IMG/VR virus record: IMGVR_UViG_3300044797_000101
Span: 55,810-119,809 of that record
DNA: 64,000 nt
Source of the DNA: a virus
Direction: 5' to 3' (one strand)
Part shown: in pieces, positions 8,652 to 20,180 of the stretch
How positions within the stretch are numbered: the stretch's first letter is position 1
Layout: the number at the start of each line of letters is the position of its first letter
Program-made: the position numbers and the translations under genes
The notes under the pieces: model-generated
What the model saw: the letters and a program-made list of their open reading frames with translations, nothing else
Told to the model about the DNA's origin: nothing
Databases searched by the model: none

Positions 8652-9215
8652 TTATTTCTGCAAACTATCGTGGTAGGCTATCAAATCAGCTTCAGAAATA
8701 GGCATGAAATTCCACTGATCCATACCCACGTTAATCATATGGTTCTTATACTTTCCTGGCATCGTCTTCCAAGCAGTATGCACGTGTCCATTGATTAATA
8801 GTCTACCATCATCTGGGATGTTCTTATGATCAAACTTTGTTCTATGATGAGGATCGTCTGTACCTCTATAAGGATAATGACTGAGATTAGCTTCTGTTCC
8901 ATCTGAGAGAGTAATCCTGAGACTCTGATGAACCTCTTGAAATCCGCGTTCAAGCATCTTCTCTTCTGCTCGGTCGTGGTTGCCAAGGATTAGGATCTTA
9001 TGTCCATTTAGGTTCTCTACGATGTGCTTGCACCATTCAGGACTCGTGAAAGCGACATCACCCATATGATAAACTGTATCCTCAGGTTTAACTAGTTTGT
9101 TCCATTCTGATACGATATGCCGATCCATCTCACCTGCATCCTTAAATGGACGAAGGCAATACTTAATGATGTTCGCATGACCAAAATGGGTATCGCTTGT
9201 GAAGTATCTCGTCAT
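8652..9215 (-). CDS. calcineurin-like metallophosphoesterase
   Basis: SDTHFGH, HMGD, GNHD, GHVH motifs; AAGGAG SD before ATG 9215. Confidence 0.9.
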   Translation of the reverse strand: MTRYFTSDTHFGHANIIKYCLRPFKDAGEMDRHIVSEWNKLVKPEDTVYHMGDVAFTSPEWCKHIVENLNGHKILILGNHDRAEEKMLERGFQEVHQSLRITLSDGTEANLSHYPYRGTDDPHHRTKFDHKNIPDDGRLLINGHVHTAWKTMPGKYKNHMINVGMDQWNFMPISEADLIAYHDSLQK

Positions 9216-9474
9216 GTCTATTCTCCTTTTCAGCAACCTTAAACTCCAGGTATTCTAAATTTGTTAATGGTTCAAATGGGTGGAAGTCATAACCTGCACG
9301 ACGACAATCCGCCTTCATCTCTTCCATGTAATTCGTTATATAGCGAGAATGCTCATAACTTCCGTTTCTATAATGGGTCTCAGCATTCTCTCTATACCTA
9401 TTAACGGCATCTTCCATTGAATGGAACATCTCTACTTTAAACTGTCCACAATGTCTACAAGGAATCATGTTCAT
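9163..9474 (-). CDS. NLxYLE-motif small protein
   Basis: CRHC N-term; FEPLTNLEYLEF. Confidence 0.75.
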   Translation of the reverse strand: MNMIPCRHCGQFKVEMFHSMEDAVNRYRENAETHYRNGSYEHSRYITNYMEEMKADCRRAGYDFHPFEPLTNLEYLEFKVAEKENRHDEILHKRYPFWSCEHH

Positions 9475-9679
9475 TTGCTTTGTTCTCTAAGTATTCTAGG
9501 TTGTCACAAAGCTCTGACATATGATCATATTGAGGCACAAGCGCGATACCATCTGCTCTTGGGAATTGAGCCTCATAAGATGTAAACTTAGGATCTTTTA
9601 TAATAACGAATAGCTCATGATACATGTTCTTTCTTCCACATATCTTACAAGGCCAATCCATTAGCAATGGTGTCTTCAT
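9455..9679 (-). CDS. NLxYLE-motif small protein
   Basis: CKICG..H; DNLEYLEN. Confidence 0.75.
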   Translation of the reverse strand: MKTPLLMDWPCKICGRKNMYHELFVIIKDPKFTSYEAQFPRADGIALVPQYDHMSELCDNLEYLENKANEHDSL

Positions 9680-9888
9680 TTGCTCAGCTCTTCTAAATAC
9701 CTAAGGTTATCTCGTTGATATCTCTCACATCTACAATCAAACATATAATCACTTGAATGCCTGCAAAGATAAGAATTACTTGTTAAATGAAGTTTTTCTA
9801 AATGTCCACAGGTACACGGAAATTTATTACTCAAAACTTCAGGGGTCCAAAGATTATGATATCTTGGCCATGTATTAGCTTTAAACAT
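9676..9888 (-). CDS. NLxYLE-motif Zn-binding small protein
   Basis: CTCGH..H..C..CRC; YQRDNLRYLEE. Confidence 0.8.
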   Translation of the reverse strand: MFKANTWPRYHNLWTPEVLSNKFPCTCGHLEKLHLTSNSYLCRHSSDYMFDCRCERYQRDNLRYLEELSK

Positions 9889-10063
9889 TTTTAGTTAAAC
9901 TCTCTAAATACTTTAGATTGTCCGGAACAAATACATGTTGCCATGTTGTACTGTTTGCATAATCATAAAAACATTTTTCACATAATTTAGGAGCATTACC
10001 AATATTATAGTGTTCAGATTCGAAATGACTACAAATCTTACAAGGGAAATTAACTTCATTCAT
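9881..10063 (-). CDS. NLxYLE-motif Zn-binding small protein
   Basis: CKICSH..H..CEKC..H; FVPDNLKYLES. Confidence 0.8.
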   Translation of the reverse strand: MNEVNFPCKICSHFESEHYNIGNAPKLCEKCFYDYANSTTWQHVFVPDNLKYLESLTKNV

Positions 10064-10227
10064 ACTAAGCTCTCCAAGTATCTTAGATTGTCACCGTTGA
10101 AATCATGATAACAATCTATTCTTTTTAACTCAATACAGTCCCAACAGACTTGCCCATCATGAAATGAGGAATGCGTAGTATGTCTATCTTTGTCATGTGC
10201 GCACATACAGATATTAACTTCTAGCAT
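10060..10227 (-). CDS. NLxYLE-motif Zn-binding small protein (55 aa, not in ORF track)
   Basis: Manual translation MLEVNICMCAHDKDRH...CWDC...CYHDFNGDNLRYLESLV. Confidence 0.8.
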   Translation of the reverse strand: MLEVNICMCAHDKDRHTTHSSFHDGQVCWDCIELKRIDCYHDFNGDNLRYLESLV

Positions 10228-11080
10228 GCTTATGAAACTCCTTTGCGATACTCAAGACAACGTTACGACCTGTATCTGTTCCCAAGACATATCCATCTAA
10301 TTCTACTACAGGTGTAACCTCTGCATAGGTTCCACATATGAATACACCATCTGCTGTAATTATATCAGGTGCAGTTAGCTTTCTTTCAATAACTTTATAG
10401 CCAGAACGCTTAGCTACACAAGACATGATGAACTCTCTCGTGAGACCTGGCAAGATGTTCCCATCGCTTGGTGGAGTGTATAACGTTATACCTGTATTAT
10501 CAATCTTAACCATGAAAAGGTTAGCTGTCAATGCTTCCGTGTAATACCCATTCCGATCTGTAAGGAACACAGTATCTGTACCAGTTTCTTTAGATAGATG
10601 CTCAAGGGACCTGAAGAATCCATAGTTGTTTGTGCTCTTGCATTGCATCCAATAATCGGGATACGAACGCTGCTTGGGTGAAGTGATTGCCTTAATCCCT
10701 AGGCGATCTTGGTTGGATGGGAGTAGAAAAGAATGTACCTCAACATTGACATCAGGACTACTTGTCTTCGCTCCTTCAGCCTTCCCAGAATAGTAGATGA
10801 CCGGACGGATATACTGTTCTCCGCCACCATTCGCAACTAAGACATCAATGCAAGCATTCATGAGAGTTAGCTTATCAAAGGGCATTGGAACTCTTAATAG
10901 CTTGGCAGAGTTGAAGAGGCGAGTGATATGATCATCTAGTAAAAAAATAGTATTTTTACCATTCTTATCTACATAGGATCGAATCCCTTCCCACACAGCT
11001 GATCCATAGTGTAAGGACCAATTGAAGGAATCTATTTGAATCGGTGAGTCGACGACCTTTCCGTTAAGCCAAGCTTTCAT
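10214..11080 (-). CDS. ilvE: branched-chain amino acid aminotransferase (PLP class IV)
   Basis: LHYGSAVWEGIR, HITRLFNSA, YIRP, catalytic K in CKSTNNY, TEALTANLF, ILPGLTR, ADGVFICGT. Confidence 0.85.
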   Translation of the reverse strand: MKAWLNGKVVDSPIQIDSFNWSLHYGSAVWEGIRSYVDKNGKNTIFLLDDHITRLFNSAKLLRVPMPFDKLTLMNACIDVLVANGGGEQYIRPVIYYSGKAEGAKTSSPDVNVEVHSFLLPSNQDRLGIKAITSPKQRSYPDYWMQCKSTNNYGFFRSLEHLSKETGTDTVFLTDRNGYYTEALTANLFMVKIDNTGITLYTPPSDGNILPGLTREFIMSCVAKRSGYKVIERKLTAPDIITADGVFICGTYAEVTPVVELDGYVLGTDTGRNVVLSIAKEFHKHARS

Positions 11081-18791: not shown

Positions 18792-19088
18792 TCATCGTGA
18801 TAGACGCTCCAAGTATTTAAGATTATCTCGTTTAAATCCTTTACACATACAGTCATCTAGTACACATTCGACTCTATTCTGAATGTTCCACATAGCTGTC
18901 ATTAACGCTTGACTGCGACTAAAAAAAGATCCATCATAAAATGTATAACCAATGACTCGTTTAGAAGCATTCCGCACTATCTTACAATTGTTAGCTCTTA
19001 CCCTAATAACACGAGCTAATAACTCATTGGGAGTCTCATACATTGCATGGTATTTATTTAAATGCCCACAAATACACGGTATATTCAT
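18792..19088 (-). CDS. NLxYLE-motif Zn-binding protein
   Basis: CICGH..H [long insert] C..CMC; FKRDNLKYLER. Confidence 0.8.
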   Translation of the reverse strand: MNIPCICGHLNKYHAMYETPNELLARVIRVRANNCKIVRNASKRVIGYTFYDGSFFSRSQALMTAMWNIQNRVECVLDDCMCKGFKRDNLKYLERLSR

Positions 19089-19255
19089 GCTCGTTCCTTT
19101 ACTTTACTCTTATACTCTAAATATAACAGATTATCCTCTGGAATGAAGAGGTAACATCCACACGCTAGATTATGCATCCAACATGTATCCATGATCTTCA
19201 AGGATAACATCAGATGATGGTGCTTACAATTCCGACATTTATTAATCTCACTCAT
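19085..19255 (-). CDS. NLxYLE-motif Zn-binding small protein
   Basis: CRNCKHHH..C..CGC; FIPEDNLLYLEY. Confidence 0.75.
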   Translation of the reverse strand: MSEINKCRNCKHHHLMLSLKIMDTCWMHNLACGCYLFIPEDNLLYLEYKSKVKERA

Positions 19256-19548
19256 ATAATCTCTATCCAAATCTCCAAGTGCATTCTGTAAGTCATATCG
19301 ATCTGTTAGGCTCTATCTAATTCTACCATGTTAGGAGTGATATAACAAGTAATTAACAATCCCTAATAGTAGGTAAGTATCATGATAGCCTGGCATACGC
19401 TTATCTACTAGTCTAGCACGTAGCTGCACCAATCCTAGATAAGTATCATCCACAGCTGTCCAGCTTCTCTACAAATTCTCGGCCACAACACTCACAGACG
19501 AAGACATCCTCTCTATCTATCGTATGAGAGTAGGTGATCTTCTCGTGC

Positions 19549-19782
19549 TTAGTCTTGGTGATGCACACGTGCTTTGTCCTCTAAGAATCTTAGGTTGTCT
19601 TGTCTATAATTGGTACAGATGTTTCCATACACGGTAAGCATATTAAACATTGCTGCTTGAAGGCGAGCCTTCTCATTATAAATCCCATCCATTGCTTCAT
19701 CTACGGATTGTCCTACAAACTTATCTAGCATAGCAATGTAGTGATCATCCTTAGGAATCCCACAGAGGCAATACTCAGTCAT
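19549..19782 (-). CDS. NLxYLE-motif small protein
   Basis: CLCG..H..C; YRQDNLRFLED. Confidence 0.8.
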   Translation of the reverse strand: MTEYCLCGIPKDDHYIAMLDKFVGQSVDEAMDGIYNEKARLQAAMFNMLTVYGNICTNYRQDNLRFLEDKARVHHQD

Positions 19783-19954
19783 TTATAATCTCTTCTAAAT
19801 ACCTTAAGGTATCTGGCACGTATTCAAAACATAAGCAAGAGCCATCAGTTGAATAGGTAGCTATGCAACCATTGGGATGTGCTTCACGATGAAGATCCCA
19901 AAAGCCAGTATGCAACTGTTTAAGATGACCACACCTGCATTTGAATTCACTCAC
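19775..19954 (-). CDS. NLxYLE-motif Zn-binding small protein (59 aa, not in ORF track)
   Basis: Manual translation MSEFKCRCGHLKQLH...GC...CLCFEYVPDTLRYLEEIIND. Confidence 0.75.
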   Translation of the reverse strand: MSEFKCRCGHLKQLHTGFWDLHREAHPNGCIATYSTDGSCLCFEYVPDTLRYLEEIIND

Positions 19955-20180
19955 GGCTTAGGTTCTCTAAATACCTGAGGTTGTCGTTCTTAAATGGATG
20001 CATCCAAGACACAACCGTACTGTTATGCTCTTGAAAGCAAATCCTACAATAGATGAATGTATTATGGAGCTCTTCTCCAAGGACATGCTCATAGTTGTCA
20101 TGCCCGCATTCGCAAGTCCTGATCTTAAGAGCCACGAGATATTCGCCTATGCACCTTGATATACCTACGAGCTGCTTCAC
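19947..20180 (-). CDS. NLxYLE-motif Zn-binding small protein (start uncertain)
   Basis: CECGH..H..CRIC..HPFKNDNLRYLEN. Confidence 0.75.
   Translation of the reverse strand: MKQLVGISRCIGEYLVALKIRTCECGHDNYEHVLGEELHNTFIYCRICFQEHNSTVVSWMHPFKNDNLRYLENLSRE

Follow-up and report, generated by a model that had tools for sequence, protein, structure and literature searches.

The DNA analysed here (the window, 64,000 nucleotides) comes from the end of the viral record IMGVR_UViG_3300044797_000101 (G000 below; 119,809 bp, rated 62% complete), of which it makes up the final 64 kb. Between positions 9163 and 20180 it holds an array of small genes whose products carry, near the C-terminus, a short motif of the form DNLxYLE, which we call the tag. 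Comparison at the level of sequence shows that these genes are real and translated, and that they belong to a very large and hitherto undescribed protein family that is confined to viruses. The typical member, of 50–100 amino acids (aa), is shown to consist of two parts: a Cys/His head built round a variable beta-hairpin, and a C-terminal amphipathic helix. Within the limits of what sequence can tell, the evidence supports a portable peptide tag on a variable library of small proteins, and we give an even chance to the further reading that the helix is a docking element with a common partner, carried from protein to protein on a diversified library of binders. The array is as an earlier note on this DNA had described it, but the note understated the scale, since the family runs throughout the whole record and through a clade of phages of 180–192 kb.

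The array and the family behind it

All genes of the window lie on the minus strand. Their open reading frames (ORFs) are given from the longest ATG, GTG or TTG start, and the true starts may be further in. When all six frames of the window were scanned for NLx[YFWLMHI][LI]E, 38 matches came up, on the minus strand only, of which 36 fall within 9163-20180 and the remaining two at 30495 and 45750; the distance from the end of the tag to the stop is 3–26 residues in these matches. Allowing T for N adds the ORF at 19775-19954 (DTLRYLE) and brings the total in 9163-20180 to 37, the same number of ORFs as the earlier note had counted. Every one of the conservative replacements of Tyr that it listed (F, W, L, M, H) was seen in the scan, and the Cys/His scaffold that it ascribed to most of the ORFs is found by profile in 30 of the 37. 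The three outliers that it placed in the family, at 30445, 45694 and 48222, are members by their profile matches, the last of them (48222-48524) with the variant tag DNLEFVE and an E value of 1.2e-6. Two other regular-expression matches, at 37835-38407 and 50043-50219, look like chance and were left out of the member count.

The members in the window are listed below; "head" stands for the Cys/His head with its putative zinc site, and E is the value of the profile match.

9163-9474, minus: 103 aa; tag TNLEYLE; N-terminal CxxCG knuckle, no profile match
9455-9679, minus: 74 aa; head and tag; E 1.9e-5
9676-9888, minus: 70 aa; head and tag; E 1.8e-15
9881-10063, minus: 60 aa; head and tag; E 5.2e-14
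10060-10227, minus: 55 aa; head and tag, with only 3 residues beyond the tag; E 7.8e-13
11082-11294, minus: 70 aa; head and tag; E 6.4e-7
11278-11490, minus: 70 aa; head and tag; E 2.9e-5
11459-11794, minus: 111 aa; tag only (NNLEYIE), no head, no known family
11760-11948, minus: 62 aa; head and tag; E 2.5e-14
11923-12117, minus: 64 aa; head and tag; E 2.5e-8
12095-12280, minus: 61 aa; head and tag; E 3.2e-11
12261-12482, minus: 73 aa; head and tag; E 1.6e-5
12463-12681, minus: 72 aa; head and tag; E 1.6e-16
12659-12913, minus: 84 aa; head and tag; E 1.4e-12
12849-13025, minus: 58 aa; tag TNLIYLE; CxxC...H at the start, no profile match
13018-13416, minus: 132 aa; foreign phrog_3972 domain (residues 9-112) and tag SNLEYLE
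13379-13699, minus: 106 aa; extra N-terminal part, short CxxC..HxH module and tag; E 2.3e-5
13668-13919, minus: 83 aa; short CxxC..HxH module and tag NNLEMLE; no profile match
13900-14088, minus: 62 aa; head and tag; E 1.1e-6
14072-14287, minus: 71 aa; short CxxC..H module and tag NNLEFLE; E 2.5e-6
14814-15005, minus: 63 aa; tag only (DNLLYLE)
14977-15168, minus: 63 aa; head and tag NNLELLE; E 2.3e-5
15155-15307, minus: 50 aa; head and tag; E 3.9e-5
15291-15485, minus: 64 aa; head and tag; E 9.6e-15; orthologue in the related phage G001 69% identical excluding the tag
15466-15678, minus: 70 aa; head and tag DNLRLLE; E 1.4e-13
15671-15910, minus: 79 aa; tag only (DNLQFLE), no Cys
15910-16152, minus: 80 aa; long-loop head and tag; E 4e-12
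16149-16421, minus: 90 aa; head and tag NNLRHLE; E 7.5e-13
16493-16819, minus: 108 aa; N-terminal hydrophobic (membrane-anchor-like) stretch, head and tag; E 1.2e-12; an orthologue exists
16812-17069, minus: 85 aa; head and tag DNLKWLE; E 1.5e-10
17056-17241, minus: 61 aa; head and tag; E 1.9e-16; subject of the first AlphaFold2 model
17216-17410, minus: 64 aa; head and tag DNLRLLE; E 3.6e-15
18792-19088, minus: 98 aa; head with a long insert, and tag; E 1.8e-13
19085-19270, minus: 61 aa; head and tag; E 1.3e-8
19549-19782, minus: 77 aa; head and tag DNLRFLE; E 8e-7
19775-19954, minus: 59 aa; head and tag DTLRYLE; E 1.2e-15
19947-20180, minus: 77 aa; head and tag; E 9.2e-13
30445-30690, minus: 81 aa; of all members the most conserved from phage to phage (FIPKDNLEFLEW); E 1.2e-17; nine orthologues at 51–81% identity
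41995-42222, minus: 75 aa; head without tag; E 6.7e-4; the G001 orthologue likewise lacks the tag
45694-45894, minus: 66 aa; head and tag; E 7.2e-17; modelled, see below
48222-48524, minus: 100 aa; head and variant tag DNLEFVE; E 1.2e-6

A degenerate DNA pattern that encodes DNLxYLE was run over the whole record: it has 31 matches on the coding strand and none on the opposite one and, read backwards, none on either strand. Because neither the strand-reversed nor the backwards-read pattern ever matches, a chance origin of the DNLxYLE matches is excluded.

Selection acts on the motif as a peptide, which we conclude from the use of all synonymous codons at its fixed residues and which agrees with the earlier note's view that the synonymous variation speaks against a DNA repeat. 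Among the motif carriers, D is written GAT 31 and GAC 15 times, N is AAT 35 and AAC 27 times, Y is TAT 25 and TAC 18 times, and the motif E is GAG 38 and GAA 27 times; the first L uses six codons (TTA 19, CTT 19, CTA 16, CTG 6, CTC 3, TTG 2), and six Leu codons are in use at the second L as well. The alternative that the conserved letters are a nucleic-acid signal, namely the ribosome-binding site of the next gene, a device of translational coupling or a DNA repeat, with the peptide as a by-product, draws on the head-to-tail overlap of the genes and on a mild excess of GAG among the codons for the motif Glu (38 of 65; in long ORFs GAG makes up 39%). We find it barely credible: apart from the codon diversity just given, the G that GGAG would require closes no more than 18 of the 65 second-Leu codons, the tag lies 3–26 codons from the stop and in only 5 of 38 cases within the 4 or fewer that fit Leu-Glu as a Shine-Dalgarno sequence, and 1589 diverged clusters still share the motif as protein sequence. 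The diversity of codons and the varying distance from tag to stop thus rule out a DNA-level repeat or a Shine-Dalgarno role for the motif in general, and a ribosome-binding-site role could hold for a handful of genes at most.

A family profile built from 150 sequences matches 62 of the 517 coding-strand ORFs of the whole record but none of the 570 ORFs of the opposite strand, and for G001, a relative with a complete genome (192,085 bp), the corresponding figures are 55 of 791 and 0 of 840. With the tag-only proteins included, the family accounts for 71 of the 269 non-overlapping ORFs of the record (26%). Aligned members follow CxCGHx4H ... C ... CxCxx[FY]x(P)xDNLx[YF]LE at a mean column identity of 14–16%, and nowhere do pairs of paralogues share high identity beyond the 13–14 residues of the tag, a restriction from which we take the paralogues to be old. 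Among 1.84 billion representative proteins, the profile search gathered 1589 clusters (50% identity) at E≤0.001 and 14 at E≤1e-10, and the strict motif is present in 165 of 170 proteins gathered. Neighbours in the ESM Atlas are unnamed clusters, 88–100% viral.

Eight further viral records carry arrays of the family. G001 and G004 (180 kb) have 43 coding-strand motif sites each, five related fragments have 10–25 profile matches each (one of them 25 in 22.6 kb), and a sixth, G003, has 2 motif sites. True family matches are confined to contigs of 33–41% G+C content (GC). Three pattern matches elsewhere were set aside as chance: that in L024 lies inside the terminase of a phage of 52% GC, and those in L039 (60% GC) and L040 (16% GC) have no profile match. 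DNA of the phage was found in two peat metagenomes, which come from two studies, one of the two metagenomes possibly being the source of the record; none of the runs listed as containing it is an RNA sequencing run. The metagenome contigs contain identical pieces only, and the five listed variant sites all lie in the aminotransferase gene, none in a family gene.

The earlier note knew of no described family to match the motif, and none emerged from Pfam, PHROGs, NCBIfam, the PDB or the fold searches described below. For 20 members scanned against Pfam nothing reached the cut-off, the best score being 14 bits against a cut-off of 28. The same number of members gave a single PHROGs match, phrog_3972 on the N-terminal domain of 13018-13416, and two faint ones (E about 0.005), and ten proteins had no NCBIfam match below E 0.01. 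Among 50,697 records of cultured phages there was no match by megablast of the 11-kb stretch or by tblastn of one member; at E≤1, tblastn of 30445-30690 reached the zinc region of T4-type gene 32 at E 0.1–0.3, which we take as chance. Fused longer forms numbered 0 among 5083 candidates, which is weak evidence. Literature searches on the motif strings, on paralogous small zinc proteins in phages and on jumbo-phage paralogues gave nothing relevant among the matches listed, and a further one turned up Iyer et al. 2021, considered below. Even if the helix should prove structural, a large undescribed virus-only domain family of at least 1589 clusters at 50% identity deserves a family entry.

Predicted fold and modular use of head and helix

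The Cys and His residues of the head follow the pattern CxCGHx4H ... C ... CxC and are invariant or near-invariant. The C-terminal helix starts with [FY]-x-(P)-x-D-N-L-x-[YF]-L-E, after which come 3–65 mostly charged residues. In an alignment of 277 tag carriers, chosen by NLxxLE, so that N, L, L and E are fixed by construction, D precedes the N in 86% and the aromatic position is Y in 75% or F in 16%, with [LK] and then [YSA] following; the tail beyond the tag has a median of 9 residues (range 3–65) and is variable in sequence. On a helical wheel the conserved residues span more than half of the circumference, which is wider than a single packing face requires.

A first AlphaFold2 model, of 17056-17241 with 41 sequences, was poor (predicted local distance difference test, pLDDT, 63.7). 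The model of 45694-45894, made with 150 sequences, has a pLDDT of 87.4 and a predicted template modelling score (pTM) of 0.60, and runs from a first knuckle through a long hairpin (residues 19-34) and a second knuckle to a helix (residues 49-65). This helix begins at the Asn of DNL, with a pLDDT of about 90, in keeping with the amphipathic helix that the earlier note had proposed for the motif, and the hairpin is the segment that varies in length and sequence in the alignments. We infer that the Cys/His set binds zinc, and the variable hairpin would be the specificity surface of a diversified library of binders.

Searches with the model gave best matches of E 1.6 (Foldseek against the PDB), E 0.32 (Foldseek against BFVD) and Z 2.5 (VIA-align). 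A zinc ribbon has two knuckles at the turns of beta-hairpins, each of which supplies two metal ligands. Two CxC knuckles and a hairpin are seen here in sequence and model, and no zinc ribbon is among the Foldseek or VIA-align matches. By sequence, the best match to a solved structure is the CxxCGHx4H knuckle of mitochondrial bL32, a ribbon of the bL32 type; it covers the first knuckle only, is not significant (E 0.22) and has no structural counterpart. RING and U-box proteins make up 11 of 14 weak structural rows, but only at Z 2.0–2.5, far under the level that the tool treats as meaningful. The RING is an eight-ligand cross-brace with C3HC4 spacing, and the U-box has that fold without metal; here only six Cys/His columns are kept in at least 90% of sequences, as CxCxHx4H...C...C, a spacing that does not fit C3HC4.

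The distribution of the two parts shows that head and helix are separable, as the earlier note's modular view had it: the tag occurs on profile-negative proteins and is kept in their orthologues, and heads without tag exist. Among 211 profile-negative ORFs, 11 carry the tag [DNSTG]NLx[YFWLMHI][LI]E, each within 30 residues of the C-terminus, against a mean of 0.11 expected anywhere and 0.026 near the end in 500 shuffles. By eye, 7 of these 11 "headless" carriers are free of the Cys/His pattern and 4 have remnants of it (9163, 12849, 13668 and one upstream of the window). Conversely, three heads in G000 and four in G001 have no tag. Variant tags such as DNLKTLE and NNLKSLE are retained between orthologues.

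Conservation within the headless proteins shows that the helix is far better kept than the remainder. Over five headless orthologue pairs of G000 and G001, 25 of 30 tag positions are kept, against 244 of 535 elsewhere (46%); the totals from a wider regular expression (187 of 210 in the tag, 2476 of 4463 in the rest) include the DNA polymerase and unrelated proteins of 1419 aa and 190 aa. In the homologues of a 163-aa headless protein, at 39–71% identity, [DN]NL[RA]-hydrophobic-LE is kept in 23 of 23 when judged by eye, and in 19 of 23 by a regular expression that does not admit V. The product of 13018-13416 has a phrog_3972 domain (E 3e-31), and its homologue of 113 aa from a Streptococcus phage, 51% identical over residues 9-101, has a different end and no tag. 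This gene is absent from all five related records examined, and it was therefore acquired in this lineage and then tagged.

Docking and other readings of the helix

If the helix is a portable protein–protein docking module, one partner in the cytoplasm of the infected cell would receive all the Cys/His heads through it, together with some other proteins. The partners that the earlier note had put forward, namely the capsid interior, an AAA+ ATPase or a host complex, are guesses. The partner that we would rank first is a proteolytic or unfolding machine, made up of a phage ClpP pair with either a host Clp ATPase or a phage Cdc48-like AAA protein; at a guess, family members would be adaptors or timed substrates of such a machine. 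Two ClpP paralogues are present in each of G000 and G001 and one in G004 (E down to 1e-69), and all these ClpP genes are embedded in the arrays, each preceded by a tagged gene whose end is no more than about 230 nucleotides upstream.

33189-33815 and 43649-44302 of the G000 record (L003:350-976, L007:547-1200), minus: ClpP paralogues, outside the window
51942-53339, minus: Cdc48/VAT-like AAA protein, 465 aa; a single AAA domain, which most resembles the D2 ring of archaeal VAT and Cdc48/p97 (E 2e-52)

The stronger ClpP paralogue resembles bacterial ClpP over residues 8-200 (E 4e-59 to a solved protein) and has ERN where the aligned solved bacterial ClpP has ERD. If the Asp of ERD is the catalytic one, the ERN paralogue resembles the ClpP1 of ClpP1/ClpP2 pairs. 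The second paralogue is far more divergent (E 3e-15), and the AAA protein has a 197-residue N-terminal part without a family match. These ClpP and AAA genes fit an adaptor or degron reading, but are only leads. Its boldest form, a library for targeted degradation in which about 60 diversified zinc heads would each seize a different host protein, those of defence included, and the shared helix delivers them to ClpP1/ClpP2 and an AAA+ unfoldase, we regard as improbable; if true, it would be the counterpart in a bacterial virus of the F-box and PRANC families of poxviruses.

As for when and where such docking would occur, a perfect sigma-70 consensus stands at 8636-8608 (minus; TTGACA, 17 nucleotides, TATAAT, with TG preceding the second hexamer), just past the stop of the gene at 8652-9236, and it suggests that the region is read by the host polymerase. 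Extended -10 promoter-like sites occur in the few gaps of the array (16461-16433 and 19348-19320). It is probably the host polymerase that transcribes the family genes, in the early or middle phase of infection. One member (16493-16819) has an N-terminal hydrophobic anchor and then a Lys-rich sequence, an order that would place its head and tag on the cytoplasmic side.

Several observations weigh against docking, or against its ClpP form. The confident model is one compact small fold, so that the Leu/Tyr/Leu face may be core; the tandem proteins known from metagenomes (P0028, P0029, P0059 and P0145) have two heads, each with its own DNLxYLE helix, as expected if the helix belongs to the domain; and the four headless carriers with remnants may have arisen by decay of members rather than by grafting. 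Taken together, promoter-like sites are about as many as chance would give (41 found, 39 expected). No Clp-type ATPase (PF07724) was found in G000, G001 or G004, and no ClpP in five related fragments, which are 12–61% complete and have 10–25 members each. The link to ClpP is weak, because the family is so dense, at about a quarter of ORFs, that neighbours are often members, and because synteny between relatives makes the five ClpP cases non-independent.

The first three of these points also speak for a reading in which DNLxYLE simply forms the core of a new, small domain akin to the zinc ribbons, as its best-conserved helix, the family being an expanded set of DNA- or RNA-binding regulators or structural DNA binders and the headless carriers decayed or chimeric products of recombination in the arrays. 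The helix is modelled at a pLDDT of about 90 within the compact fold, the tandem proteins repeat head and helix as a unit, with the boundary about 8 residues beyond the tag, Lys-rich tails beyond the helix are common, and a DNA-binding role has been proposed for the zinc ribbons of Bacillus phage G (PMC7824862). We nevertheless consider this reading rather unlikely. Some heads lack the helix, and such heads are conserved from one phage to another; the tag stands at 25 of 30 positions in unrelated bodies that keep 46% elsewhere, and in all 23 homologues of the 163-aa headless protein; and the freshly acquired phrog_3972 domain bears it. The polar N and E are also invariant in the 277 tags, though by construction, given the selection by NLxxLE.

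Two other roles for the tag seem to us less probable still. It might be a short coiled-coil element that pairs members into combinatorial homo- and hetero-oligomers, as helices flanking RING domains do; several RING and U-box proteins dimerise through such helices, the hydrophobic residues at tag positions 1, 4 and 7/8 have heptad spacing, and RING or U-box entries dominate the weak structural rows. The Z values of those rows are 2.0–2.5 only, and some helices have just 3 residues beyond the tag, too short for a stable coiled coil; a two-copy complex prediction of 45694-45894 scored 0.00, which speaks neither for nor against self-association. On balance self-association is quite improbable. 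Alternatively, the tag might direct proteins to the procapsid, or mark a site after Leu-Glu at which a maturation protease cuts, in a library of small proteins injected with the DNA like the internal proteins of T-even phages. The motif does end in hydrophobic-Leu-Glu, and some prohead proteases cut after Glu, but the genes lie among those of replication and nucleotide metabolism, with host-type promoter-like sites and outside the structural module, the known capsid-targeting sequence is N-terminal where the present tag is C-terminal, and one member looks membrane-anchored. Sorting or processing is, in our view, very improbable.

Returning to docking on a diversified library, we find partial likenesses in several known systems. 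In the large Bacillus phage G, about 35 copies of a small zinc ribbon, of unknown role, have been reported and proposed to be transcription factors or structural DNA binders (Iyer et al. 2021, Viruses 13:63, PMC7824862). The likeness lies in a very large phage with tens of copies of a small zinc-type domain. The family profile, however, has no match at E≤0.1 in the whole 497,513-bp record of phage G, against 10–25 matches per relative in five controls, and the paper's example, gp32, is a protein of 117 aa with CPxCG...CPxGC and without DNLxYLE. Because of the missing profile match, the other ligand pattern and the lack of a tag, the phage G expansion is best seen as an analogue and not as a homologue of the present family. 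A shared portable end-helix is not described for it in the available portions of PMC7824862.

The present tag recalls the internal proteins of T-even phages in that one short peptide serves as an address on unlike, fast-evolving small phage proteins. Their capsid-targeting sequence stands at the N-terminus, has about 10 residues and is cut off by the prohead protease, whereas the present tag is C-terminal in every carrier, helical and followed by a variable tail, and its genes lie outside the structural module. A search for the S77 prohead protease family gave no match, but control genomes were likewise unmatched, so that this result is uninformative. The ankyrin proteins of poxviruses with F-box or PRANC ends, and SspB with its tail, share with the present family the joining of a variable binder to a constant docking element, which in poxviruses is also multiplied within a virus. 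The F-box is a three-helix domain of about 40–50 residues. The ClpX-binding tail of SspB and degrons of the ssrA type stand at the very C-terminus, whereas the present tag is trailed by 3–65 residues in the 277 carriers and is not a free end. The sliding-clamp-binding motif of bacteria, QL[SD]LF, by which flexible tails bind the beta clamp, is a pentapeptide of the form amide-Leu-x-hydrophobic-hydrophobic. It has the same spacing as N-L-x-[YF]-L, but for the present motif the prediction is a helix.

In large eukaryotic viruses, multigene families that fill a quarter of the gene set are a hallmark of arms races. For phages, the zinc ribbons of phage G are the one published case that is loosely comparable, and the present expansion comes with a helix that is short, invariant and transferable. 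Should this helix indeed be a docking tag, it would reveal a new means by which phages organise an arsenal that evolves fast, its roughly 12 residues would serve as a peptide handle for fishing the partner, and the heads would offer a natural library of binders of about 45 residues, stabilised by the zinc that they putatively bind.

Genes in and around the arrays

The array is surrounded by a class IV aminotransferase, a patatin-like lipase, a DNA polymerase A fused to a uracil-DNA glycosylase (UDG), DnaB, an RNA ligase and a polynucleotide-kinase-like protein, and further by a MoxR/VWA pair, NAMPT and a dCMP deaminase. The first three of the following are auxiliary metabolic genes in or near the arrays.

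10214-11137, minus: class IV aminotransferase
17403-18308, minus: patatin-like phospholipase
60724-62256, minus: nicotinamide/nicotinate phosphoribosyltransferase
43134-45722, minus: DNA polymerase A, 862 aa, with an N-terminal domain of the uracil-DNA-glycosylase superfamily and a 3'-5' exonuclease
22674-23876, minus: polynucleotide-kinase-like protein with an HD domain and a P-loop kinase
26184-27314, minus: T4-type RNA ligase 1
34066-35178, minus: MoxR-like AAA_5 ATPase
35246-36544, minus: protein with DUF2201_N (putative metallopeptidase) and a VWA-like domain, adjoining the preceding gene

The DNA polymerase is less than 30% identical to that of any cultured phage, with SPO1-like Bacillus phages giving the best matches. 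The kinase protein and RNA ligase 1 resemble an RNA repair pair, possibly one that counters host defences that cleave tRNA. MoxR/VWA pairs are known as chaperones for cofactor insertion, and to find one is curious in a phage so rich in metal-binding microproteins.

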